This document shows, in pieces, positions 7,422 through 36,349 of a DNA stretch of 64,000 nucleotides. The notes below the pieces were generated by a model. It ran no database searches, was not told the origin of the DNA, and worked only from the letters and a program-made list of their open reading frames with translations. The position numbers and the translations under genes are program-made. Source of the DNA: a virus (Duplodnaviria; Caudoviricetes); the IMG/VR virus record IMGVR_UViG_2885633469_000002, positions 64,001 to 128,000 of that record, one strand, 5' to 3'. Within the stretch, counting starts at the first letter, position 1. Every line of letters starts with the position of its first letter.

Positions 7422-7487
7422 TTTCCATTCACTTCCTTTCTTTCCCAAATAATAAAAAGAAGCTACATAGTAGCAACCTCTCTAAAA

Positions 7488-8306
7488 TTAATTTTCTTTT
7501 TTCAATTCGTATTTAATTTTTAAAATCATATCTAGCAATTTTTCTCTAGTCATTACAGTATTATTACAATTAGGTATTTTACTAAATTCATTTTGAAGTT
7601 TATTTAAATTTTCTTTTAAAAACATATAATTATCTATATCACCAATTTCAGGAATTGAATATATCTCAAATTCATCATAATAATTAATAAAATCATCTAT
7701 TCTTAATTTTTTTAGCCAATTACAATTTGCATTTTTATTAAATTGTTTAAAATTTTCTTCTGTAGTTTCATGGATACTAACATTTGTAGGAAACATTTTT
7801 CTTGTTAAAGTTTTATATCCATTGTTAAAACTATTAAATGATATAATCTGATTTGCACTAATATTTGATATATTATAAGGTAAACTTTCATCAAATATTA
7901 TTAAATCAAAATGAGGCTTTAAACTCCTTGTTTCTTCATTTTTGTACCAATATATTTCAGAAATATTTCTGTCTTCATATTCTATACTTAATGATGTATA
8001 ATATCTATCATTTGTTTTGTTTGTCTTAATATTTTTTATGTTTGAATTGTTTGATAACTTTTTAATTTCATCTATTTTTGAACAAAAGTATACAAAAAAA
8101 CTATTTATAGGAGCTACATATAAAACTCTCCTTGGTCTGCTTCTTAAAACTTTACACATAGCTGTAAATGTTTTTCCTAAACCTCTTGATCAATTTACTA
8201 TCATTGTAGAATTTTTATCTTCTACTACTTTTCTTTGATAATCATAAAGAAAAATAAACTCATCATTGTAAAATTTACTTTCATTAAAATTGCTTGTCTC
8301 TAACAT
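7488..8306 (-). pseudogene. Terminase-like P-loop ATPase fragment with an in-frame TGA
   Basis: ATG 8306 is in frame with ORF 7488-8159; reads LYDYQ...IVN*SRGLGKT with TGA at 8190-8192. Confidence 0.6.
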
Positions 8307-24000: not shown

Positions 24001-24858
24001 TTATATTAAACTTTCTAATTTTTTAGTTAAAAATTTTCTTCTATCTTCATAGTTAAATTCATTTTGTATTTCTATTAAATCTGAATCATACTGTTCTAAT
24101 ATATGTACTAATTCTAACTCTTTTTCACTAAAACTATTTCTAATGGGGAAATGTTTAGCAAAACCTTTTCTTTTTCTATATTCTTTAGCTGACATTCCAA
24201 TAATGACTTCATTTAATAAACAAAACTCAGCTATGAATTGATTATTATGCATATATTGGGGAATTGTTTTTATTACCTCTTTTTTATATTTTATTAAAGC
24301 ACCTTTTAAAGTTTTGCATTTTATAAGAGTATTTTCTCTATCTAAATTCCATTCATATCTATTTTTAAAGGCTTTTTCTATGTATATAAAGTATTTTCTA
24401 GCAATTTTACTTTTTTCTTTTAATTCTTTACCTGTTCGTCCACCTTTTGCTCCTGCAACCATAGATATTTCTTTTGCTATTTCTATAATCATAAAATATT
24501 CTTTATTATAACCTAAAGCTACCATTCTATTGGAATTACTAGCGTCCCCTTTGAAGGTGTCGCTTCCTTTTATCCATTTTATATTATATTCTTCGTCTTC
24601 TTCTAAGTCCAAATCTTCTATCTGTTGTTTTATCCATGTTGTAAAATCTCTACCTACTCCTAACTCATTATGTATAGTTCTTGCATTGATCCAATTTTGA
24701 TTTTCTCCTTGTAACACAGGTAATTTTTCTTGATACTCTAAAATCATATTTATCTCTTTATCTTCTAAAGCATATAATTTTAATTCATCTTTGGTTAGTT
24801 TACCTTTTTTTAAATTTTTGCTTGTTTTTGTTTTTTTCATTCTATCATTTCCTTTCAT
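24001..24858 (-). CDS. AntA/AntB-type antirepressor
   Basis: INARTIHNELGVGRDFTTWIK...IEIAKEISM...ARKYFI.IEK. Confidence 0.8.
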   Translation of the reverse strand: MKGNDRMKKTKTSKNLKKGKLTKDELKLYALEDKEINMILEYQEKLPVLQGENQNWINARTIHNELGVGRDFTTWIKQQIEDLDLEEDEEYNIKWIKGSDTFKGDASNSNRMVALGYNKEYFMIIEIAKEISMVAGAKGGRTGKELKEKSKIARKYFIYIEKAFKNRYEWNLDRENTLIKCKTLKGALIKYKKEVIKTIPQYMHNNQFIAEFCLLNEVIIGMSAKEYRKRKGFAKHFPIRNSFSEKELELVHILEQYDSDLIEIQNEFNYEDRRKFLTKKLESLI

Positions 24859-25029: not shown

Positions 25030-25875
25030 TTAAAGTTTATCATATATTTTTTTTATTTGCCTTGCTCCAGTAGTATCTCCTACTTTCTCTAAATGATTAA
25101 ATTTCTGTTTTAAACTTCTTTTTTTATTACTTTTTTTCTTTCCTGAAGTTGTTTGTGATTTTAGATTATTATCTTCTTTAAATCTTTTTGCATATTCTTT
25201 TAAACAATCTCTATCTTCATATCTACAATAGTAATTAACATCTTGTTTTACTTTACCCCTAACAATTCTGTATCCCCCATTAATATAGTCTATTAATTGT
25301 AATTCTTTTAAAATAGCATTATAAGACATTATTGCTTTTATACCTATTCCCACATCATACTCAATTTTATCAAACGAAGGATAACAAATTTTATTTTCCT
25401 TATTCATTCTCATAATTAGGTAACAAAAATATCCTATTAATTTAAATTTATCTGTGTTCTTTTTGCCTTTACAATATTCTAATATCTTTCTGATTTCATC
25501 GTCATACACTATAAAAAAACTATTATCAAATACATAATTTAATTGTACATAATATATTTCTCCTTTTTTTAATTTGCTTATGTCTGTAATTTCTTTCTCT
25601 AAATAAAAATCTTGATAATATTCAAAAATATCCATCTCTTTTAATTCAATTAAACAATTTCTTATTTTTTCTATCATTTTTGTTTGAGTTCTATTTACAT
25701 ATAAAATGTCTAACAATTGATTAATTGAAAAACTACAATGATTTCTTATTGTTATAGTTTGTGAAATTAATATGTATATAATCAAAGATTCATTAGATAA
25801 AATATAATTGTCCTTTGAATTTTTATTATCTAATATCATATAATTAGATATTTGTATAAACCAATCTTTATCCAT
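25030..25875 (-). CDS. Putative replication initiator with HTH domains
   Basis: CYPSFDKIEYDVGIG.KAI..Y..ILKELQLI winged-HTH pattern; adjacent to the partition locus; start ATG 25875 after AGGAGG. Confidence 0.55.
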   Translation of the reverse strand: MDKDWFIQISNYMILDNKNSKDNYILSNESLIIYILISQTITIRNHCSFSINQLLDILYVNRTQTKMIEKIRNCLIELKEMDIFEYYQDFYLEKEITDISKLKKGEIYYVQLNYVFDNSFFIVYDDEIRKILEYCKGKKNTDKFKLIGYFCYLIMRMNKENKICYPSFDKIEYDVGIGIKAIMSYNAILKELQLIDYINGGYRIVRGKVKQDVNYYCRYEDRDCLKEYAKRFKEDNNLKSQTTSGKKKSNKKRSLKQKFNHLEKVGDTTGARQIKKIYDKL

Positions 25876-26173
25876 TAATGCACTCCTCCTTTCTATATTT
25901 ATATCTTTTAACATTTACACTCTTTCCTTTGTAACTAGGAAAAACATTACATAGATATGTTATACTTATATTGGTAAATAGAATTTTATTTACATCGTAG
26001 AGTCTGAGTAACTAAAATTTGGACACTAAAGAGAGTGAAACAATATATACTAATATAACAATATATACTAATAAGTTAATAAGATAGACTTATAAAGAAA
26101 CAAAACCTTCGTACCTCAGTTTTTGTTTCTTATACTTTATTATTTTTTTATTTTTCGTTTCCTTTATGTTTTT

Positions 26174-26202
26174 ATCTTACCAAATTATTTTATATTAGTC
26201 AA
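26174..26202 (-). promoter_or_regulatory. SigmaA promoter of the rep leader with operator in its spacer
   Basis: TTGACT-17-TAAGAT; spacer ends TAAAATAATTTGG. Confidence 0.55.
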
Positions 26203-26370
26203 CTATTATTTTTAGATTTTATTAAATTATTTTATATATTTTTAAAACTCTTTCTAAACTATTTTAAAGCATATTATCTTTTGCTAGTCTTATTATACCT
26301 ATTTATTTTTATTCCTCTTTATATCCCCTCTCATAAAGTTCTAAATTTATAATTTTAGGTATAAGGAAGA

Positions 26371-27099
26371 TTATCTTCCAAATAACCTTCCCAAAAATGA
26401 TTTTTTCTTTTTTGCTTCCAATTCTTCTTGTTGCTTTTTTCTTTCCTGTAAATTATGTTTTAACATATCAATCATTTCTATATCTCTTGAAGTAGCTTGT
26501 CTCTCTTTATCATCTACATAAGATTTGAATTCTGAAATAGATTGGTCTAACTTTTCAGATATTATCTCATCTACTGTCAATGCTATAGTTTCATTAAGTT
26601 TATCGTTCATTTCTTGCTTAATTACAATTCCTTTATTTTGTTTTTCATCAATTTTACTTAATAACTCATTTGAAAAACAATTTAATTTCCTATCTATTTC
26701 TACTGATAAAGCTGAGATTATAGTCTGAATGGCTAATGGATTACTAGAATCTACTACACTTTGTTCTATTTCATTTATATCAAAACCTTTTGAACTACAA
26801 TAATCTGACACTTGTTTCAAAGTTAATCCATCCTCTTTAGTTAATTTTTTTATAAATTTTAATTTTTCTATGTCTATTTTTCTATATCGTTTATTTTCTA
26901 CATCTAATAAATCTTTAAACACTCTAGTCCAATATGTTATTGTTGATTTTGGTAAGCCTACCTTTTGTGCAACCTGAGAAGTTGTGTAAAAAAAAGGTTC
27001 CCCTCTAATAACTTTTGTTTTTGAATCTTTATTTTCTATTTCATCATCTACATCAAAAAATTCAGCATCAACTACTTTATCTTCACTAAAATTTTTCAT
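26371..27099 (-). CDS. tubY: TubY-like MerR-HTH/coiled-coil partition modulator
   Basis: YTTSQVAQKVGLPKSTITYW MerR HTH, coiled coil, amphipathic tail KKSFLGRLFGR; divergent from tubRZ. Confidence 0.75.
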   Translation of the reverse strand: MKNFSEDKVVDAEFFDVDDEIENKDSKTKVIRGEPFFYTTSQVAQKVGLPKSTITYWTRVFKDLLDVENKRYRKIDIEKLKFIKKLTKEDGLTLKQVSDYCSSKGFDINEIEQSVVDSSNPLAIQTIISALSVEIDRKLNCFSNELLSKIDEKQNKGIVIKQEMNDKLNETIALTVDEIISEKLDQSISEFKSYVDDKERQATSRDIEMIDMLKHNLQERKKQQEELEAKKKKSFLGRLFGR

Positions 27100-27169
27100 G
27101 GAAAATCACTCCTTAAAGAAAAGTATAGTTAAAGTATACCATATATAAATAAAAAGATATAGGTTTGTT

Positions 27170-27620
27170 TTAATCCAATTAAACAGAACTTTAACTTTAC
27201 TTCACTTATTATTTTAATAGCTTTTACTTAACTTTACTTTAAAATAATAAGTGTATTACATTTATTATTTTTAAATAAAAGATAAATGGTAAAAATATTT
27301 TAATTCAAAATATAAATCTTAATAACTATTGTTTTAATTATATTTTAATACCATATAAGTTCTATTTAAATACTATTATTGTTCTATTTTAAGTATAATA
27401 AATATTAGTTATTCTTACATTTCAATTCAATTTAAAGTATTTTATAATTCTATTTATATTCTATATAAGTTCTAAATTATTACCATTTTCATACTAAATA
27501 AATAATAAATAAATACTATTTTATAACACTATTGCATATACCACTATAATATAGTATTATATTGGTAAGGTTAAATAAGTTCTAAGTTATTTCCAAATAA
27601 GTTACAATTTAAGCATAAAA
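27170..27620. repeat. Probable tubC centromere/operator region
   Basis: Degenerate ATAAGTTCTA repeats (about 27355, 27465, 27575, 27597) and AACTTTACTT repeats (about 27193, 27230). Confidence 0.5.
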
Positions 27621-27696
27621 GCTTTCTACATTAATCAGCTTTAGTTAAAACTTTATTTTATTTTATTACTTAATTGATTAGAGGTGAGTTATAAAT

Positions 27697-27984
27697 ATGG
27701 ACTCTGTCATATTTACAGAAAACGATTATAGGATATTAAAAGCTATAATTGATAGAAATGACAATAAAAAAGGTTTGTGTAAAGGCAATGGGACTACGAT
27801 TAAAGAAATTATAGAAAAAACTTGTTTGTCAGATAAAAAAGTTAGACAAACATTAAAAAGATTTGAAACATTAGAATTTGTAAGTAAAGGATTAAAAATT
27901 GTAAAAGCAGATACTTTTTTACTTACAGAAAAAGGTTTTGAAGAATTAAATAGTTTAAGAGAAAATATTTTTGGGGAGGTATAA
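27697..27984 (+). CDS. tubR: TubR winged-helix centromere-binding protein
   Basis: 95 aa wHTH directly upstream of tubZ. Confidence 0.75.
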   Translation: MDSVIFTENDYRILKAIIDRNDNKKGLCKGNGTTIKEIIEKTCLSDKKVRQTLKRFETLEFVSKGLKIVKADTFLLTEKGFEELNSLRENIFGEV

Positions 27985-27987
27985 TAT

Positions 27988-29055
27988 ATGGAAAAAGAGA
28001 AAAATCTAATTATAGGTTGTGGAGGAGCAGGCAATAGACTGGCAAATACTTTAATGAACTTAGATAGGCGTTATACCACTATATTTTTAAATTCTAATAT
28101 GAGTGAAATGGAAAATTTAAAACACTTTGATAGCGAAAGACGTTGTTTTTATATTCCTAACGCTGATGGTTGTGGCAAAGACATGGATAAAATGGAAATG
28201 TTTTGTAAAGAAGAAGCTCCAAAATTTATGGTTATGATAAAAAAATTCACAACTCATAAGTATGTTACATTCTTAACTAGTGCAAATGGTGGAACAGGTG
28301 CTGAGGCAACTATTATGTATTCAGAGTTAATAAAAAAAGCTTGTCCAGAAAAATCTATAAATGTAATAGCAACTTATCCTTCTTTAACAGAAACAAGTAT
28401 TGATTTTGATAATGCTACAAGATTTTGGAATGAAATGATAAATCTTAAAAAGAAAGGCTATATTGATTCTATAAGATATATAGATAACAATAAAGGTGAT
28501 GAGGAAGAAATAAACATAAGAGCCATGAAGGAATTAAATGAAAGTTATGACATGGCAAATGGTAAACTAGACACTACTGATTCAGCAAAAGTACATTGTA
28601 CAAACGGATATAAAGTATATTTAAAATTAGATAAAAATTGTTCTGATTTGGAAGAAGCCATAGATAAAGCTATAAAAGAAAGTGTTTTCTATATGCCTGA
28701 TATCTTTGAATGTGATAAAATGATTGCAGACATCAACACACAAGATTTTGATTCACAATTAATTGAAGAAGAATTTGAATATTATGATTTTGGTAAATTT
28801 AACGAAAATACAAATGGAGAAACCAAAATACTTTTAGGCGGTTGCGAAATGCCAAGAGAAACTATTGAATTAGTACGTGAAGCATTAAAAGAAACTAAAA
28901 AAAGAAAAAGAAGAAGAAATATCCAAGAGGATTTAATTATAAGAACAGAAAATAACGAAGATAAGAAAGAAAATATAAAAACAAAGACAAAAACTAGATT
29001 GTCAGCAGATGATTTAAATAATATGTTTGCGGATGACAGTTTTTGGGATGATTAA
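27988..29055 (+). CDS. tubZ: TubZ tubulin/FtsZ-family GTPase
   Basis: IGCGGAGN, DGCGKD, ANGGTGA, IDNN and LDTTD tubulin-family loops; 355 aa. Confidence 0.9.
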   Translation: MEKEKNLIIGCGGAGNRLANTLMNLDRRYTTIFLNSNMSEMENLKHFDSERRCFYIPNADGCGKDMDKMEMFCKEEAPKFMVMIKKFTTHKYVTFLTSANGGTGAEATIMYSELIKKACPEKSINVIATYPSLTETSIDFDNATRFWNEMINLKKKGYIDSIRYIDNNKGDEEEINIRAMKELNESYDMANGKLDTTDSAKVHCTNGYKVYLKLDKNCSDLEEAIDKAIKESVFYMPDIFECDKMIADINTQDFDSQLIEEEFEYYDFGKFNENTNGETKILLGGCEMPRETIELVREALKETKKRKRRRNIQEDLIIRTENNEDKKENIKTKTKTRLSADDLNNMFADDSFWDD

Positions 29056-29169
29056 TAATACAATTAAATTAATATTTATACATTAAATAGGTTTTTAGTT
29101 AGCTTTAAAGGCAAGTAGGTGTTTAATTTCAGCACCTACTTAACCCTACCTGAAAAAATACCTAGTGAA

Positions 29170-29808
29170 TTATGATACATTATTTACTTTAAACATTACT
29201 CTCTGAATTTCATTACTTTTTAATTTGAAAAGTAAAAACTTAATGTCATTTTCGTTCATCAACTCTAAATTTTTAACACTTCTTGCAACTTCAATACTGT
29301 TTTTATTAAACTTGCCTGTAGAACATATAATACCTTTATCAGCATTAAACATTTGCATTGAACCTAATAATTTAAAACAAATATCTCTACCAATACAACT
29401 GTTTTTATCATAATATTTACATTCTACATAAGTAGTTTCAATTACTCCATTCACTTTTCTTTTTAAAATAATATCTCTGCCATAATCGTGAGTAAATTTA
29501 GTTAGTTTAACATCATAATAACCTTGATATTTAAATACTTCTGCCATCATTACTTCAAACTGTCTAGGTGTTAAATAGTTTAATTTACTTATTAACTCAT
29601 TTAAATTATATCCGTTATTATAGCTTATATTGAAGTTTCTAATTAATATGGGTAAATATTTAATTCCTTTATACATTTCCATACAAATATAACGAATCAT
29701 TTCAAAAAATCTTATTGTAAATTTAAAAAAGTTTTTTTCAAATTTGCTTAATTTTATAATATTTAATAAATTATAATTGCTTTTATAGAATTTTGTTCTT
29801 TTTTTCAT
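29170..29808 (-). CDS. Mrr-like restriction endonuclease domain protein
   Basis: LTPRQFE..AEVF..QGY...D.GRDII...VECK.Y...STGKF. Confidence 0.8.
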   Translation of the reverse strand: MKKRTKFYKSNYNLLNIIKLSKFEKNFFKFTIRFFEMIRYICMEMYKGIKYLPILIRNFNISYNNGYNLNELISKLNYLTPRQFEVMMAEVFKYQGYYDVKLTKFTHDYGRDIILKRKVNGVIETTYVECKYYDKNSCIGRDICFKLLGSMQMFNADKGIICSTGKFNKNSIEVARSVKNLELMNENDIKFLLFKLKSNEIQRVMFKVNNVS

Positions 29809-29876
29809 ATATACCACCTCAGTTATATATATCTATATTATAGACAAGAAATAATATTATATTCTATAAATAGTAG

Positions 29877-29906
29877 TGTCATTTTGGGGTGTTACTGCAT
29901 AGTATA
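29877..29906 (+). promoter_or_regulatory. Possible sporulation (sigmaE/sigmaK-like) promoter
   Basis: GTCATTTT-12-CATAGTATA; spacer slightly short for sigmaE. Confidence 0.3.
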
Positions 29907-29943
29907 TATTAATAGATAAATAAAGAAAGGATGAATATATATT

Positions 29944-30117
29944 TTGTATACTGTAGTAATTATAGGAACAGGCTTCATTGTAGGCATAATTAGATGTTAT
30001 ATATATAAGAAAAATAAAAATTCTAATAAGATTCAATATTATAATTATAGTAAGTATGCAGTTAAATATAAAAGATTAAATAATAATATAAACCAACAAT
30101 CAAAAAATATATTTTGA
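29944..30117 (+). CDS. Small membrane protein (57 aa)
   Basis: Read by hand: AAGGATG RBS, TTG start, MYTVVIIGTGFIVGIIRCYIYKK. Confidence 0.55.
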   Translation: MYTVVIIGTGFIVGIIRCYIYKKNKNSNKIQYYNYSKYAVKYKRLNNNINQQSKNIF

Positions 30118-30130
30118 TTAGATAATGTAG

Positions 30131-31657
30131 GTGAAATTTATGGATTTTATAAATAAAAATATTAATAAACAAAGTAGTAAAATTAAGCAAGAAAAATCAA
30201 AAGAAGATGAAATAAAAATAAATCAATTAATTTATAATTGGAAAAATACTTTTGGAAATTTAGAAAAATGGAATAAAGAATATAATGGATATACACTTTC
30301 TAATATTAAAGTAGAAACATATGGTTTTAGCTCTAGAGTATATGCTCCTTGGGGAATGAATCTTTTTGCACTTAGCAATTATACAGATATTATTGAAACA
30401 GGGTGTAAATGCGAATTTTTATATGAAATTCCTCAACATAGACAATTTGCTTTAGCTAAATTCATATATCCTGAACAAATAAAAATTAATAGTTGGGATT
30501 TTACTCCTGTTAAAGTTAAACCATATGAGTTTTGCCCAGGTTATGATATAACAGGGAAACCAATAGTTTTTAATCTAAATAACTCCCCACATATTTTAGT
30601 GGCTGGACAACAAAGAAGAGGGAAAAATGCTTCTGTAGATAACGCAATAGTTTCATGGATATATTCTTGTACTCATAGAGAAATAATGTTTTACATGTTT
30701 CAATGTGCTAAAAATGACCTTGTAAAATATAAAGAATGTAGTCAAGTTTATTGCTATGCAAGTACTTTAGGTGAAATTTTAATTGCCCTAAAACATTTAG
30801 AAAAGGAATTATTCAGAAGAACAAAGCTATTTGAATCAATGGTAAAAAAAGCTGATGGTAATGACAATATTTTTCATTATAATAAACTACATCCTTATAA
30901 TAAATTACCTTATATTATAGTTATTATAGATGAATTTATAGAACTCATGCCTGATAATTCAACTGATGATAAAGATATAAAAATAATTAAAAATGAAATA
31001 TTAAAAAGGCTACAAATGATAGGTCAATGGGGAGGTAGTTTAGGTATTAACTATTGCCCATTACATCAAAAACCTTCTGCTAAACTTATGCCACCTTTTA
31101 TTAAAAATCAATCTAGTATTAGAATATGCTTTGGATTTGAAGACTTAGTATGTTGTGCAATTGTTTTAGGGGATGAGTTAGCAAAACATGCTTATAAACT
31201 TCCGCCTAGAAAGGCATATTTCTCAAATAATGAACAAAATGGTTACCTATACACTCCTAATTTAAAAGGTCGCATAAGAATGTTTATAAAAGATTCCATT
31301 AAACCAAATCATAGAAATTTATTCAGTGATTTAGAAAAATTAAAATCTTCTAATAAGAAATTACAGATAAATAAAACTTCATTAAGTAAAAATATTCAAA
31401 ATAAAGAAGATTACTTACATAAAGATAAGGGAGTAGCACCAATTCCTAAAAATATAAATAAAAACTACACTAAAGAACTTAACTTTGATAAAGTAGACCC
31501 TTTCAAAAGTACATTCGATAATAAAAAATTAATTAATAATATTAAAAATAACATTCCTAATTTTGTTCCATATAATGCCAAAACAAATCCCGAAATAATA
31601 ATAGATAAAACTAAATTTGACCCATCCAAAACTAAAAAACCCATTAAAAATAAATAA
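30131..31657 (+). CDS. FtsK/SpoIIIE-family ATPase
   Basis: PHILVAGQQRRGKN (Walker A variant), E..RR, IIVIIDEF, LGI..LHQKP, IRICF. Confidence 0.8.
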   Translation: MKFMDFINKNINKQSSKIKQEKSKEDEIKINQLIYNWKNTFGNLEKWNKEYNGYTLSNIKVETYGFSSRVYAPWGMNLFALSNYTDIIETGCKCEFLYEIPQHRQFALAKFIYPEQIKINSWDFTPVKVKPYEFCPGYDITGKPIVFNLNNSPHILVAGQQRRGKNASVDNAIVSWIYSCTHREIMFYMFQCAKNDLVKYKECSQVYCYASTLGEILIALKHLEKELFRRTKLFESMVKKADGNDNIFHYNKLHPYNKLPYIIVIIDEFIELMPDNSTDDKDIKIIKNEILKRLQMIGQWGGSLGINYCPLHQKPSAKLMPPFIKNQSSIRICFGFEDLVCCAIVLGDELAKHAYKLPPRKAYFSNNEQNGYLYTPNLKGRIRMFIKDSIKPNHRNLFSDLEKLKSSNKKLQINKTSLSKNIQNKEDYLHKDKGVAPIPKNINKNYTKELNFDKVDPFKSTFDNKKLINNIKNNIPNFVPYNAKTNPEIIIDKTKFDPSKTKKPIKNK

Positions 31658-31694
31658 AAATTTTATAATATTGTTTATAAAAGGAGTGACTCTT

Positions 31695-32330
31695 ATGCCT
31701 TTGAGAATATATTATACAGATGAAGATCATAAAATACTACAATTTGTTGAAGAATATGGTTCTATAACAATTAAACAATGCCAAAATATGTTCTATAATA
31801 GACAAGATAAAGGATATGAAATGGCTAGAAGACATTTAGCAAAACTAACTAATTATGGAAAACTTAAAATGGCAGTTAGAGATTTTAATTGTGGAGGTAG
31901 AAATGTTTATTATATAAACAAAAAACTTAATTTTCATAATTTATTAACCTTAGATTATTATTCAAATTTAATAAAACATGGGGCTAAAATTGTATACTTT
32001 AAGCAGGAGCAACCTTGGTTAAATAATAAGTATTTCAGCGATGCTTATTGTTGTTATATTATTGGTAATAAAGTTATATTTGATATTATAGAAGTCGTAA
32101 GAACTAAAAATATTGAAGTAGATAAATATATACAAATCTTCAATTCAAACGAAGCTCATGATTTAAGTAAATATATATATAATCAGCTTGGAGGAGAAAA
32201 TTTAGAATTATTTCCCCATTTAATTGTTATAGACGATGTTAAACATAAAAAAAAATTATACATTAACGATGATATCAAAGTCATACAATTGAATTTTAAC
32301 TTAGATAACTTTACAAATATCTTTATATAA
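31695..32330 (+). CDS. Replication-relaxation-like protein (wHTH plus PD-(D/E)xK fold)
   Basis: ILQFVEEYG.IT...ARRHL.KL...YY...H...SDAY...IEV; usual FtsK partner in Firmicutes phages; start ATG 31695 after AAGGAG. Confidence 0.6.
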   Translation: MPLRIYYTDEDHKILQFVEEYGSITIKQCQNMFYNRQDKGYEMARRHLAKLTNYGKLKMAVRDFNCGGRNVYYINKKLNFHNLLTLDYYSNLIKHGAKIVYFKQEQPWLNNKYFSDAYCCYIIGNKVIFDIIEVVRTKNIEVDKYIQIFNSNEAHDLSKYIYNQLGGENLELFPHLIVIDDVKHKKKLYINDDIKVIQLNFNLDNFTNIFI

Positions 32331-32885
32331 TTTGTAATCCATACCACAATGTATTACCCCAACATGTCATTATACAACCTCAAGACCACACTTACCTCAT
32401 AAAATAACATTGATATATAATGGTTTTAAATTTCTAAATAGAGGGTTATAAGCGATAGTAAAATAACCCTCTGATAAAATGTAATACAATACATATCACA
32501 AAAGATAGATACATTCTCAAAAGTTTAAACTTTCATAATATTATTAAATACTAATAAAAACTAAAGATATATTTAGTAACTAAAATTATAATAATATATA
32601 TTTATTATTGAGTATTTTATCCAATTTATTATAGTAACAAATACTTAAATAGGTAAAGGGCTGGATGCTATCTTCCTGTAAAAGTAAGTTTTATTATAAT
32701 AAATTAATAAAATTTTTAATAATAAATTCTATATTGTTATTTATTTAAAGTTATATATAAATATATTATATAAGTTTTTTTAATTATAATATTTGATATT
32801 TATTAAGAAAGTTAAAAACAAATGTTAGATACATAAACAAAATTTAAATTGATTAACGAAAGAGTAAAAATTAAAAAATAAACCG

Positions 32886-33185
32886 ATGGAGGAGTTTTTG
32901 ATGAACTTAATTTATATTTTATTAGGTACTTTATTTATAAAAACATTGCACATTAAAAAAATTAAATTTAAATATTATAAAAGAAGTTTTAGTAAATTGT
33001 GTGACTTTTTATTTGAATTTATTTGCAATATTGTGCAATTAATTAACATGATATTGGCTTTTGTATTCTCAATTATTAAAAAGATTAATAAAAATATCTC
33101 TCAATACAAGAGAGTGAAGTATTCTATTAATAACAATAGTAAAGTAATTAATTTTGAGAAGTATAAGTCAAAAAAAGCAAAATAA
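32886..33185 (+). CDS. Membrane protein
   Basis: Two hydrophobic segments and a KVINFEKYK tail. Confidence 0.6.
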   Translation: MEEFLMNLIYILLGTLFIKTLHIKKIKFKYYKRSFSKLCDFLFEFICNIVQLINMILAFVFSIIKKINKNISQYKRVKYSINNNSKVINFEKYKSKKAK

Positions 33186-33274
33186 TTGTAAAATACATTT
33201 TATAAAAAGCCATAAGTTAGTAAATTAATTGGATTTATATAATAATTGTTATATTTAATAAAGGAGGTATTTTT

Positions 33275-33466
33275 ATGTCAATGGGGATAATAATTACTAT
33301 GGGTTCAATTTCAGTTGGTGGTGTAATAGTACAAAAAATATTATCTCAAATGGGTAAAATTGATGAGGCAAATATGATTGGTATTGTAGTTATTAGTATG
33401 TTAAGCTCCACAGTAATAGGTTGTATTATAAAAGTTTTTGAAGAAGTGGCTACATTAGGTCAATAA
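33275..33466 (+). CDS. SpoIIIAC/AD-like small membrane protein
   Basis: 63 aa; TM-KILSQMGKIDEANMI-TM-IIKVFEEV pattern resembles SpoIIIAC; AAGGAGG RBS. Confidence 0.6.
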   Translation: MSMGIIITMGSISVGGVIVQKILSQMGKIDEANMIGIVVISMLSSTVIGCIIKVFEEVATLGQ

Positions 33467-33496
33467 ATTTAATAATATATTTAGGGAGGAAAATTT

Positions 33497-33727
33497 ATGG
33501 ATTTAATTCTATATGGAATCTTTTTAGCACATTTGTATTCATATAAAGCCTACTATATAAAAATTTTTATATTTTTCTCTATTACTTTTGTTATTAAGAG
33601 AATAATAAAACAGGGAAACGTTGATTATGCAAATTTAATTGGATTAGGAGGATATAGTTTAACATTATTAGAGTTCATAAAATTAATTAATGCTATGGCA
33701 AAAGCAGGTTTTAGAATGACCAATTAA
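33497..33727 (+). CDS. Second SpoIIIAC/AD-like membrane protein
   Basis: TM-RIIKQGNVDYANLIGLGG-TM. Confidence 0.45.
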   Translation: MDLILYGIFLAHLYSYKAYYIKIFIFFSITFVIKRIIKQGNVDYANLIGLGGYSLTLLEFIKLINAMAKAGFRMTN

Positions 33728-34715
33728 TTTTAAGTATATTAATTATTTAAGTTTTTATTAGAGATTTATCGGTACAAACTAATGTTCTCAATAAGATTGA
33801 GTTGTTTTAAGTATTTTTTAAGAAAATTTAATTTAAAATATAGCAAAATCGAACAAATGTATTAATATTAATGTTTAAACTACTTTTATTGGTAAAAACT
33901 ACTTTATCGATAGAAAGGTTGTAAGTAATATAAACGTTGATATTAAAGGGTTTGTTCGATTTTGTTTTTTGTATTTTGGGTTACTGTCAAAATGTGTACA
34001 AACCTTGATATTATAAGGTTTTGTCGAGATTGAAAAATTAACTGTGTGGTGTGAATAGAAGTGTTGCGACAATTAATAATGATTATTGATTAATAATAAA
34101 TGTAAATATACCCCCGTATATAGGTTTACATAATAATTCAGCTTAATATACATTAAGCTAAACTTATTATCCATTTTTTACTATTTTATATTTATATTAT
34201 TACTTTTTATATATACATATAAAGCTTATATCATATTTAATAATAGGCTCTCTAAAATACTTCGAGATTGTTCTAGATAAAATGTATGAGTATTTATACC
34301 TTTGAAAAAATAAACGCTTAGAAAGGACGTAGGAAGGTTTTAAGCATATAAAATACTTTGCAAGTCTATTTTTAAAAATTGCATACTTAAAATATAAGAA
34401 AGATAGTTATTATTAAATACTATTTAATTTTATTTTTATAAATTATTTATATATAGTGTTTATATTATTATAAATGTAAAGTAAACTTTACATCGGATTT
34501 TATTGCAACAAAGTTCTTTTACACGAACACTTCTTATTATCCAAAAATATATTATACTATTTAAATATCTATACTACTTAATATATGTATCTAATAAATA
34601 ATTACTATTAACTCATTATTGCTATTATTACTTTAAAACAATTTAATTAAATAACATTTAAACGTTTTATAAGTGCAAAAAACTTGGGAATAATTATATA
34701 AAATGGTAGAAAACC

Positions 34716-34744
34716 TTGACAAATATAAAATAATTTGATATAAT
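34716..34744 (+). promoter_or_regulatory. Consensus sigmaA promoter with operator in its spacer
   Basis: TTGACA-17-TATAAT with TG extension; spacer ends TAAAATAATTTGA. Confidence 0.85.
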
Positions 34745-34771
34745 AAAAGTGTAGTAAAGGAGGTGCAAAAC

Positions 34772-34927
34772 GTGAATTTAGGTACAATAAAAGACCTTTT
34801 AGACTTCTTATGTGCTTTATTAAATGTATGGATTCTAATTTCGCAGTTAAAAGACATACATAATAAAAAACATAAGAAAAAGTCTAAAAGGTCTAAAAGA
34901 ACTAAAAATCACAGGAAAGGGCGTTAA
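34772..34927 (+). CDS. Type I toxin-like peptide (51 aa)
   Basis: AAGGAGGTG RBS, GTG start, hydrophobic helix and Lys/Arg tail; convergent promoter at 34948-34975. Confidence 0.6.
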   Translation: MNLGTIKDLLDFLCALLNVWILISQLKDIHNKKHKKKSKRSKRTKNHRKGR

Positions 34928-34955
34928 GCCTTTTCCCACCTAAATTCATTATATC

Positions 34956-35099
34956 ATGATGGGAATAAAAAACAACAGGAAAATTTTGCTATCAACTTTA
35001 ATTTTATTTTTAATTTATAGTATTTATAGTAAAAATATATTAATAATAGTCTTAACTATAATAAACTTAATATTATTATTCATTAATAAAAAAAGATAA
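34956..35099 (+). CDS. Small two-TM peptide (47 aa)
   Basis: Read by hand: MMGIKNNRKILLSTLILFLIYSIYSKNILIIVLTIINLILLFINKKR; no clear RBS. Confidence 0.35.
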   Translation: MMGIKNNRKILLSTLILFLIYSIYSKNILIIVLTIINLILLFINKKR

Positions 35100-35493
35100 C
35101 TTAATATATATTTTTATAGTAGTTTTTAAGCTACTATATTTTTTTATTTAAATACAAAATAATTCAATAAACTAGTTGACAATATGTTGTTATAAGTGTA
35201 TAATATAATTAAAGGTTAAGAGATATTTTAGGAATAGATTAATATAGAAAATAAATTTATTCATATGATGTCTTAAGATAATGAATCAAAAAAATATAAA
35301 CTCATCTAATAAACTCAATTAAATCATTTCAGGTTAACAACTGCAAGTGTAAGAACATAAATCAATTAATAAAAAATAATTTAATAAATTATATGAAAGG
35401 ATTTGCAAGTCAATTTGAGGAAATATTAAAAGCAATAGAAAACGAAAAAGTTATTAATTTAAATAATTATAGATAAAAAGGGAGGGTGTTAAA

Positions 35494-35784
35494 ATGAAAA
35501 AAGTAACTAAAAAAGAAGTAAGAGAGTTTTTAAAAGAATGCAGGGAGGATAATCCTTTTGGTTGGAGGCTCTGGAGATGTGGAGCATTTATATACAATGA
35601 CAAAGTTAGTTTATTCGTTGCTTATCATGGGCAAGGATTAAATGAGATAGTATACAACCAAAAATATGATGATATTGTAGAATTTGAGGATTTATGCAAC
35701 ACATATGAATATAATTTAAAAACTGCAACAAATATAGCACACGAACAAATAAAAAATATGATAGAAAATTATTTAGAAAAATAA
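35494..35784 (+). CDS. Hypothetical early protein
   Basis: 96 aa with RBS. Confidence 0.6.
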   Translation: MKKVTKKEVREFLKECREDNPFGWRLWRCGAFIYNDKVSLFVAYHGQGLNEIVYNQKYDDIVEFEDLCNTYEYNLKTATNIAHEQIKNMIENYLEK

Positions 35785-35854
35785 AAGATATTTTAACAAT
35801 AAAATAAGTTAGTATTAATGTGAAAAATAATTTAATAAAAATAAAGGGAGTTGT

Positions 35855-36349
35855 TTGAAAATGAAATTAAATTCTAAAAAATTCAATTTTAATTTTTTCT
35901 TAGGAGGTGTTAAAAAAGTACAGTCTTTGGAATCTGGGGCTTTAGAAAATGGTGGAGCTACAAAGTTTGAAAGTGGAATATATAGCAATATAGAAAAAGA
36001 CGAGTATATAAACATAAACAAAGAAAATAATAAAATAAGTTTGTTTGTGCCAGACACAATAAATGTAAATAATAAAACAGATAATAGTAAATACATAGAA
36101 TTTTGTATTAATCAATTGCAAAATTTATATAATGATGTTAATTTAAAATATTATAACACTCAAGGCAGTTGGTATTCAGAAGATCTTAAAAAAGTTGTAT
36201 ATGATAATATAACAATTCTAACTTTACAACTTAATACCTTAACAGAAAAGGATATAGAAAATTTTATAGATTTAGCAAATTGGATTAAAACAGAAATGCA
36301 TCAAGAAGGTGTAAGCATAAATATAAATGATGCTTTAGCAATAGTATAA
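35855..36349 (+). CDS. Hypothetical early protein
   Basis: 164 aa, GGAGTTG RBS, terminator after. Confidence 0.6.
   Translation: MKMKLNSKKFNFNFFLGGVKKVQSLESGALENGGATKFESGIYSNIEKDEYININKENNKISLFVPDTINVNNKTDNSKYIEFCINQLQNLYNDVNLKYYNTQGSWYSEDLKKVVYDNITILTLQLNTLTEKDIENFIDLANWIKTEMHQEGVSININDALAIV

Follow-up and report, generated by a model that had tools for sequence, protein, structure and literature searches.

A conserved cassette of an FtsK/TcpA-like ATPase, a relaxase-like protein and SpoIIIAC-like membrane proteins in a c-st-like phage-plasmid: a clostridial counterpart of the Bacillus phage 'DNA translocation operon'

What use might a phage-like element have for a cluster of genes that resembles a small DNA-transfer apparatus? 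The question is raised by positions 29877-33727 of a 64,000-nucleotide stretch of viral DNA (the window; positions 64001-128000 of contig C26, IMG/VR record IMGVR_UViG_2885633469_000002; G+C about 24%), where six rightward genes encode a peptide with a single transmembrane (TM) segment, an FtsK-like ATPase and a relaxase-like protein (unit 1) and, beyond a gap of 555 bp, three small membrane proteins (unit 2). A reading made from the sequence alone (the sequence-only reading) had seen here a sporulation-linked, conjugation-like device that delivers the element into the spore or modifies the channel between mother cell and forespore. The features it listed were all present where it had placed them, including the reading frames, the 555-bp gap, an inverted repeat within the gap and two promoter-like sites. 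Judged by homology and gene order, the cassette is a real conserved module and a clostridial form of a kind already described in Bacillus phages.

That kind is the 'DNA translocation operon', which Pathria et al. (2012; PMC3357382) described informatically in the Bacillus thuringiensis phage 0305phi8-36 and also deleted; the statement of the sequence-only reading that it knew of no functional characterization of such a module is to be corrected in this respect. As described by these authors, the operon comprises orf200, 201, 203 and 207 and encodes, besides membrane proteins and a translocase without a TM segment, a relaxase that HHpred relates to CloDF13 MobC (E 4e-22); partial versions were reported from SPO1, GBSV1, Bacillus virus 1 and the Gamma-like phages, and the association of the operon with phages was called unexplained (PMC3357382). 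The window cassette likewise places a MOB_C-like winged helix-turn-helix (wHTH) relaxase relative beside a TM-less translocase, adds separate small membrane proteins, and belongs to phages of spore-forming Firmicutes. The two also differ in several ways. In the gene order given for 0305phi8-36 the relaxase comes first and the translocase second, whereas the ATPase gene precedes the relaxase-like gene here; orf201 was assigned to AAA_10, whereas the window ATPase belongs to PF01580; and no VirB6-like or MreB-like partner was found in the window cassette. Furthermore, a gap of ~420-970 nt, with a long RNA hairpin in it, interrupts the window's type of cassette, whose membrane proteins are SpoIIIAC-like and which is linked to TubZRY. 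On the sequence comparisons detailed below, the window cassette is a c-st-type clostridial version of the operon of Pathria et al.

The c-st-type arrangement was recognized from gene order. Clostridium phage c-st (CST191-197) and the Clostridium botulinum plasmid pNPD1_1 (NPD1_RS01175-01205) share the order of the window, namely an Mrr-type gene on the minus strand, a small peptide, an FtsK-like gene, a gene of ~200 codons, a gap (571-624 bp in these two) and three small genes, and in both of them the cassette adjoins tubR/tubZ and ParB. All three carry a strong sense-strand-only hairpin in the gap. The likeness is nevertheless remote at the level of sequence, with ATPase identities of only 36-45%, no match at the DNA level and genes annotated 'hypothetical'; megablast of positions 29800-33800 against phages and plasmids returned no match. 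Closer relatives, in which the relaxase-like protein is 56-68% identical to that of the window, were found at three viral and 11 metagenome loci, some of which are the same contig, and the order of the cluster is kept in 10 distinct metagenome or viral loci. Among five further genomes of the host's family, the ATPase gene is followed directly by the relaxase-like gene in all five, and both SpoIIIAC-like genes are also kept in two. The ATPase and relaxase-like genes are thus adjacent in every locus examined, and where the following gene could be located, the gap 3' of the relaxase-like gene is 419-967 bp long. This conservation of gene order exceeds chance. In one viral contig (L005, positions 7432-8282), three extra small genes lie between the gene for an 88-residue membrane protein and the SpoIIIAC-like pair, so unit 2 tolerates insertions.

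The distribution of the module was surveyed with the narrow family of the relaxase-like protein, which was present in 48 of 388 genomes scored within the host's family (a further 12 were unscored) and in none of the 350 other genomes of a phylum-wide sample. The hosts were spore-formers in all the examples seen. A restriction to spore-formers, for which the sequence-only reading had proposed a survey, is not separable in these counts from the host range of the phages. Phage f2b1 was considered as a case from outside the spore-formers, since a Staphylococcus host is listed for it, and was set aside because it is a Bastillevirinae phage and so uninformative on this point.

The ATPase (30131-31657, plus strand; 508 residues from a GTG at 30131, with an ATG at 30140 as another possible start) had PF01580 as its sole Pfam match (E 9.3e-17, 61.6 bits against a cut-off of 24) and also matched phrog_17074 (E 4e-99) and phrog_1358, an FtsK/SpoIIIE-like family. 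It is 43-45% identical to its counterparts in phages c-st and D-1873 and in Clostridium botulinum plasmids, 36% identical to that of pNPD1_1, and 27-28% identical to TcpA-type genes of C. perfringens plasmids. A weak match to the ATPase part of PADLOC SspH (E 6.5e-11) covers the shared P-loop domain only. An ATPase of the FtsK type had been correctly recognized from the sequence, whereas orthology to SpoIIIE was not borne out: the Pfam scan found no gamma-domain family, no TM segment was seen, the N-terminus being polar and lacking a hydrophobic stretch when inspected by eye, and the host's own FtsK/SpoIIIE-like frame (758 residues, contig C12) is only 27% identical. On these features the protein is neither an orthologue of SpoIIIE nor a copy of spoIIIE. 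Across eight homologues, residues G159, G164, K165, D267, E268, R331, P480 and Y481 are invariant; Walker A reads GQQRRGKN (residues 159-166) and Walker B IIDEF. A conserved C-terminal motif, IPNFVPYN, lies beyond a low-complexity linker in the region of residues 470-482 and looks like a docking peptide.

A 57-residue peptide is encoded immediately upstream (29944-30117, plus strand), its gene ending 13 nt before that of the ATPase. It has one hydrophobic segment and a conserved basic tail with a YYNYSK motif, and homologues occur directly 5' of the ATPase gene in six distinct loci, with a weak one in c-st. In the alignment G8, R17, K22, K29, Y33, N34, K43 and K54 are invariant. This peptide is a candidate for a separate membrane anchor that would serve the TM-less ATPase.

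The third protein of unit 1 (31695-32330, plus strand) has 211 residues if translated from its likely start, an ATG at 31695 that lies 37 nt after the ATPase stop codon and behind AAGGAG, rather than from a TTG at 31617; this length resembles the 205-219 residues of its homologues. An AlphaFold2 model built with 25 homologues had a mean predicted local distance difference test score (pLDDT) of 88.9 and a predicted template-modelling score (pTM) of 0.86. In the model, residues 1-76 are predicted to form a winged helix (Z 9.2, root mean square deviation 1.9-3.1 over 62-69 residues), followed by what appears to be a nuclease domain of the PD-(D/E)XK type. Foldseek searches with the whole model retrieved the PD-(D/E)XK enzymes Cdn1, VC1899, Bax1, FokI, NucS and McrC, with a best E of 5e-4 and low template-modelling scores, and D116 and E133 are invariant among the 25 homologues. 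No PDB sequence was retrieved at E<=10 with the family profile, and a wider PDB route, which covered residues 1-76, gave wHTH matches for that segment alone, the C-terminal domain being outside that search. The protein matches phrog_9996; a pattern scan of the genome contigs (A1) gave 285 pattern matches, none of which was confirmed.

The sequence-only reading had named this gene a replication-relaxation protein. A profile search over 1.84 billion representatives retrieved 411 relatives at E<=1e-3, and six of 10 sampled distant relatives matched PF13814 (Replic_Relax) with E-values from 2e-6 to 4e-3, P0177 alone exceeding the gathering score (28.5 bits versus 25.3); the window protein itself stays below the PF13814 profile threshold. 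The link to Replic_Relax, as judged from these profiles, therefore holds as a distant relationship and not as family membership, and we regard the protein as a divergent relative. PF13814 is a family of MOB_C relaxases (PMC5357655), which has been assigned a PD-(D/E)XK fold and annotated 'plasmid replication and relaxation' (PMC3424549), and MOB_C relaxases are described as combining a wHTH with a restriction-endonuclease-like domain (PMC5357655, PMC5714925). Two of the 10 sampled relatives (P0095 and P0139) are fusions of ~630 residues in which PF01580 is followed by the relaxase-like domain, which gives independent support to the view that the ATPase and the relaxase-like protein work together. 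A C-terminal relaxase-like domain (~430-610) was also noted within proteins of ~612-650 residues from other lineages (P0095, P0139, P0158, P0169 and P0172).

An FtsK/TcpA-type ATPase adjoining a relaxase-like relative of Replic_Relax, together with small membrane proteins, bears out the description of the cluster as a conjugation-like DNA-processing set. An FtsK-related ATPase gene directly 5' of a relaxase gene is also the arrangement in the modules of TcpA coupling protein and non-canonical relaxase of integrative and conjugative elements (ICEs) and integrative and mobilizable elements (IMEs) of Firmicutes and of pCW3-type plasmids; the MOB_C relaxases pAD1 TraX and CloDF13 MobC are also to be compared. 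The window differs from these systems in carrying the TM domain on a separate peptide and in having no type IV secretion set in the module.

Unit 2 opens with a two-TM protein of 99 residues (32886-33185, plus strand), whose probable start is the ATG at 32901 behind GGAGG (94 residues). It shares with its relatives a C-terminal motif (V/I)xFxxYKxKKAK; the protein had no match in Pfam, PADLOC or NCBIfam and no usable match in the ESM Atlas. The other two proteins had been called SpoIIIAC-like, and a profile comparison had been proposed, which we carried out against 28 SpoIIIAC proteins, gathered from the host and 27 related genomes and built into a profile. For the family of the 63-residue two-TM protein (33275-33466, plus strand), hhalign gave a probability of 95.5% and a score of 42.2 over 59 columns, end to end, whereas the reversed control scored 10.5 and 40 block shuffles did not exceed 19.1. 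Circular-shift controls were dropped as a null because they kept the aligned segment. Residues 3-60 aligned with positions 3-60 of the 64 in TIGR02848 (E 5.4e-4), with a score of 20.4 bits that is far under the curated cut-off of 56.65 bits, and 29 of the 30 nearest ESM Atlas clusters belonged to the SpoIIIAC set, at a score of 0.92 and with 209 features shared. PF06686 was the top Pfam match for two more distant relatives (16.0 and 18.8 bits; cut-off 24), and it matched neither the window proteins nor nine and eight members of their families. These comparisons support the 63-residue protein as a real remote homologue of SpoIIIAC (PF06686/TIGR02848), beyond chance.

The 76-residue membrane protein encoded next (33497-33727, plus strand) is a paralogue of the 63-residue protein, the two families aligning at 88.7% by hhalign. 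Its own alignment to SpoIIIAC reached 71.5% with a score of 28.1 (maximum of 40 shuffles, 15.7), which weakly suggests that it too is SpoIIIAC-like. Of the pair put forward from the sequence, the 63-residue protein is thus well sustained and the 76-residue protein less so, and neither reaches the curated SpoIIIAC cut-off. The likeness to SpoIIIAC and SpoIIIAD extends to a length of about 63 residues, a two-TM hairpin and a G-K-x-(D/E)-x-A loop, as well as to a paralogous pair encoded side by side, as AC and AD are; the 76-residue protein differs from SpoIIIAD in lacking its duplicated domain. The phage genes lie outside any spoIIIA operon, with the ATPase gene, the relaxase-like gene and unrelated small genes as neighbours, and the host retains its own spoIIIAC/AD on contig C18, in the only operon that a genome-wide search with PF06686 retrieved. 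Literature searches turned up no paper on phage-borne SpoIIIAC-like proteins or on CST192-197. In Geobacillus phage PK5.2, the small proteins encoded after the relaxase gene had no hidden Markov model likeness to the 63-residue family. One relative of the 63-residue protein had a weak holin match (PF16083, E 0.007).

The gap between the two units (32331-32885) holds several elements, of which a hairpin of ~130 nt (32600-32727, plus strand) is the main one. RNAalifold on an alignment of 10 loci made with MAFFT gave 36 pairs. Counting on the alignment that had also yielded the structure favours it somewhat; with this proviso, the pairs were 89.4% paired compared with 44-56% when partners were slid by one to three columns, 20 pairs were changed on both sides compared with 4-10, the covariation score was 0.43 compared with 0.12-0.18, and none of 500 shuffles reached any of five measures. 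With RNA parameters, the window hairpin folds at -36.2 kcal/mol on the plus strand (z -6.2) and at -26.9 kcal/mol on the minus strand (z -4.7). Of 358 hairpin cells in the alignment, 62 were G-U pairs and eight A-C mismatches, and since G-U pairs so far outnumber A-C the fold belongs to the sense strand. A covariance model (R1) found the hairpin once in the window and once in the genome as a whole. In c-st and pNPD1_1, hairpins that cannot be aligned with it occupy the same position and are the strongest or near-strongest fold of the module region: that of c-st reaches -53.5 kcal/mol on the plus strand (z -10.3) and -15.1 on the minus strand (z -1.2), and that of pNPD1_1 reaches -43.7 (z -6.6) and -17.0 (z -2.4), respectively. 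Plus-strand z scores with DNA parameters were +0.29 for c-st and -1.6 for pNPD1_1; for L012 they were -2.6 compared with -9.1 with RNA parameters, and for the window -3.8 compared with -6.2. In the five further genomes, a fold scan found strong hairpins 3' of the gene in all five, stronger on the plus strand in four.

The long hairpin is best read, from its folding and covariation, as an RNA structure. An origin of transfer (oriT), a single-strand origin or a cruciform at this place was rejected as a first choice, the z scores being stronger with RNA than with DNA parameters, and the sense-strand fold likewise makes an oriT at the long hairpin unlikely. The sequence-only reading had offered 32330-32880 for a nicking assay; the conserved hairpin of that region folds on the sense strand, as RNA, and speaks against its use as a nick region. 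The oriT of pAD1 is known to contain a large inverted repeat. A repeated promoter or terminator cassette was also rejected, because R1 finds a single copy in the window and in the genome. The position of a ~60-bp stem between two sets of genes suggests an element for processing, stability or read-through. As a single-copy, covarying, sense-strand hairpin that marks the cassette in at least three diverged lineages, it is a new RNA candidate; Rfam gave three matches over 26000-36000, all at chance level (E 0.07-0.25).

The 10-bp inverted repeat that had been noted in the gap forms a smaller, GC-rich hairpin (32440-32449 with 32463-32472, plus strand) with the loop motif GCGATAG, and it is a genuine structure, with a free energy of -14.7 kcal/mol, a z of -5.4 and none of 200 shuffles as good. 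The loop motif GCGRTAG recurs in five of the 14 gaps examined, and a GC-rich stem of this kind was found in the window and L019 only. The window hairpin lacks a following T-run and possibly marks the end of the first transcript. Between the two hairpins lies a conserved non-coding block (32477-32599, plus strand), which reads TACATA...CACAAAAG...TAAACTAATGATAA in relatives and has many invariant columns in the 10-locus alignment; no confident promoter assignment could be made in it, and it is a candidate for the promoter or leader of the second operon. Downstream of unit 2, a very long hairpin followed by a T-run (33844-33977, plus strand, the hairpin itself at 33844-33964; arms of 42 nt, 81% complementary, -48.4 kcal/mol, z -7.7) is probably the terminator of the membrane-protein operon.

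Both promoter-like sites had been compared with mother-cell promoters, and only the first of them kept this status. The element upstream of unit 1 (29877-29906, plus strand) has T..C at -21/-18 and CATAGTATA at 29898-29906, and CATAGTAT is present at 29898 as had been noted. In eight aligned loci the -10 box has an invariant C, T, A and T, and CATAnnnTA is complete in seven; the C at -18 is invariant, and an A precedes it in seven of the eight, giving AC 17 nt upstream of the -10 box. This conservation exceeds chance, and the case for a promoter rests on it and not on motif counts. In C. difficile, the wording of which we used as the mother-cell consensus, a CATA-type -10 is called 'canonical for mother cell sigma factors', and AC is found in the -35 of sigK promoters (PMC3789822). 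The region upstream of the host's spoIIIAA carries GTCATATT-N14-AATACTTT. The site at 29898 fits a conserved promoter-like element of the mother-cell sigma (sigE/sigK) type, as far as its conserved positions can indicate. The second site, CATAAGTT at 33211, is present in the window and has a counterpart in none of the seven other loci. A sigma-70 scan (58 sites against 58.4 expected) was uninformative on the sigmaA promoter that the sequence-only reading had not seen. Just 5' of the gene for the 63-residue protein, L007, L016, L019, L015 and L005 have short GC-containing hairpins, TATAG(A/G)GG...CC(T/C)TATA, which are absent in the window.

The surroundings of the cassette resemble those in c-st. 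Transcription runs leftwards before ~27 kb of the window and rightwards beyond it, and near 27-28 kb the sign of the GC skew switches. A MerR-type gene (26371-27099, minus strand; PF13411, E 1.5e-11) lies to the left in the place of CST188 in c-st, and its product would correspond to TubY of c-st. To the right follow a small tubR-like wHTH gene (27697-27984), a tubulin/FtsZ-like, tubZ-like gene (27988-29055; PF00091, E 1e-8) and, on the minus strand, an Mrr-type nuclease gene (Mrr_cat; 29170-29817; PF04471, E 6e-21). From these homologies, we identify the neighbourhood as the TubR/TubZ region of a phage-plasmid like c-st. The divergent MerR-type gene and the tubR-like gene are separated by 597 bp of intergenic DNA, which coincides with the change in skew and is a candidate centromere or origin region.

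We consider it fairly probable that the cassette is a c-st-type version of the DNA translocation operon that handles DNA at the membrane and sits in the plasmid-maintenance region of the element. From the homologies, synteny, RNA structure and promoter conservation described above, we infer how its parts might act, when, and which way DNA might move. In unit 1, the soluble FtsK/TcpA-like ATPase and the wHTH/PD-(D/E)XK protein, with the TM peptide, would act on the DNA of the element itself by binding, cutting or nicking and would pump it at the membrane, where the peptide may provide the anchor. The three small membrane proteins of unit 2, two of them relatives of the SpoIIIAC family, would form a membrane site or dock to one. 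The long sense-strand hairpin would most likely act on the transcript by processing, stability or control of read-through into unit 2. Sporulation would be the most likely time of action, because the promoter-like site that precedes unit 1 is conserved and of the mother-cell type.

Several observations weigh against this explanation. Walker A ends in GKN in seven of the eight homologues, where S or T is usual in the last position. The ExK lysine of the relaxase-like protein is out of place, residues 133-138 reading E-V-V-R-T-K, and its nuclease activity is therefore uncertain; moreover, the protein has no Pfam match at E<=0.1, and none of 26 close homologues carries a Pfam domain. At the promoter-like site the window's own -35 reads TC rather than AC, so that a strict AC-N17-CATANNNTA does not match at 29880, and since the whole window has a single occurrence of this strict pattern where 4.05 were expected, it does not serve the element as a general promoter. 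R1 finds no hairpin in c-st or pNPD1_1, whose hairpins are equivalent to that of the window in position and fold only, and in the five further genomes it finds none near the gene and one weak match elsewhere (E 0.04). Scans with Pfam, phrog and NCBIfam revealed no VirB4-, VirB6- or TcpC-type part among the proteins of the module. Finally, deletion of the operon in 0305phi8-36 was reported to cause no growth defect (PMC3357382).

The last point is accommodated by a bolder proposal, which goes beyond DNA handling at the membrane and which we think improbable. Here the cassette would be a mother-cell device: its SpoIIIAC-like proteins would mimic the SpoIIIA-SpoIIQ channel or attach to it, its motor would join with the relaxase-like nuclease to push a copy of the plasmid-prophage into the forespore after asymmetric division, securing its inheritance by the spore, and the RNA hairpin would time the membrane parts. 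Such delivery into the spore fits the type of promoter, the likeness to SpoIIIAC, the spore-forming hosts and the missing lytic-growth phenotype in 0305phi8-36. If true, it would guarantee the spore inheritance of a low-copy phage-plasmid by a kind of intracellular 'conjugation' that joins both compartments of a single sporangium. Phage-plasmids of the c-st type are easily lost. They include carriers of the botulinum C/D toxin genes, and their retention in a spore-forming host is a practical question. A conserved cassette beside TubZRY with a promoter-like site of mother-cell type and spore-channel-like proteins provides a concrete hypothesis of spore inheritance, and the same hypothesis offers a purpose for the 'DNA translocation operon' of Bacillus phages.

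A role in plasmid replication or multimer resolution, in which the Replic_Relax-like protein would serve as replication initiator or as resolver of plasmid-prophage dimers, the ATPase would aid segregation with TubZRY and the membrane proteins would be passengers, appears unlikely to us. It would suit a location in the maintenance region that has tubR/tubZ alongside and, in c-st and pNPD1_1, ParB close by; it would also suit the nearby change in GC skew and the 'plasmid replication and relaxation' annotation of PF13814 (PMC3424549). Replic_Relax and FtsK genes have also been reported beside partition genes in phage papers, with a TrbC/VirB2-like neighbour in one, and treated there as helpers of plasmid replication (PMC9658697, PMC7685451). 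The skew switch, however, falls between tubR and the MerR-type gene, ~3-5 kb upstream of where the module begins, and the element has a separate candidate initiator, a 294-residue protein (25030-25914, minus strand) with a weak HTH_36 match (E 8e-4). The membrane proteins, moreover, accompany the ATPase and relaxase-like pair not only in the window's group but also in c-st, in pNPD1_1 and in two of the five further genomes, and the conserved element of the gap folds as RNA and not as a DNA origin hairpin.

Less probable again is a mobilization module of relaxase, coupling protein and oriT, by which the element would move from cell to cell through the pore of a conjugative element. A relaxase beside a TcpA/FtsK-type coupling gene is standard in ICEs and IMEs of Firmicutes (PMC5357655), the ATPase has the identity to TcpA-type genes of C. 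perfringens plasmids given above, and Pathria et al. made the same argument for their operon (PMC3357382). Nevertheless, pNPD1_1 is typed as non-mobilizable in PLSDB, the MOB_C relaxases of streptococcal IMEs are reported to pair with VirD4 and never with TcpA (PMC5357655), the best candidate cis site folds as RNA and not as DNA (as the DNA-parameter z of c-st illustrates), and the presence of the family in the host's family, as opposed to the rest of the phylum-wide sample, fits phage host range better than promiscuous mobilization. A defence or exclusion system, in which DNA entering the cell would be attacked by an ATPase of the FtsK/HerA type and a PD-(D/E)XK nuclease, with the membrane proteins as effectors or holin-like partners, is very improbable, since the adjacent Mrr_cat gene with its PADLOC matches, the SspH match and the weak holin match that would favour it are set against an SspH match limited to the shared P-loop domain, the lack of any PADLOC match for the relaxase-like or small proteins, and a fusion or adjacency to a relaxase family and a match to the phage cassette that fit the handling of self DNA.

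Some further features of the region may be recorded alongside the cassette. The Mrr_cat gene is divergent from it and has the same place in c-st (CST191), pNPD1_1 and L005; its PADLOC matches are PDC-S02 and mREase_IV, the latter comprising type IV methyl-directed restriction enzymes. The 294-residue possible replication initiator adjoins a protein with an AntA/AntB antirepressor domain (24001-24858, minus strand; E 1e-14). To the right of the cassette, about 1 kb (33728-34760) has no convincing gene and contains two pairs of direct repeats, 33929-33964 with 33997-34032 and 34347-34380 with 34411-34444; the stretch is closed by a perfect TTGACA-17-TATAAT promoter with TG at 34716-34744.

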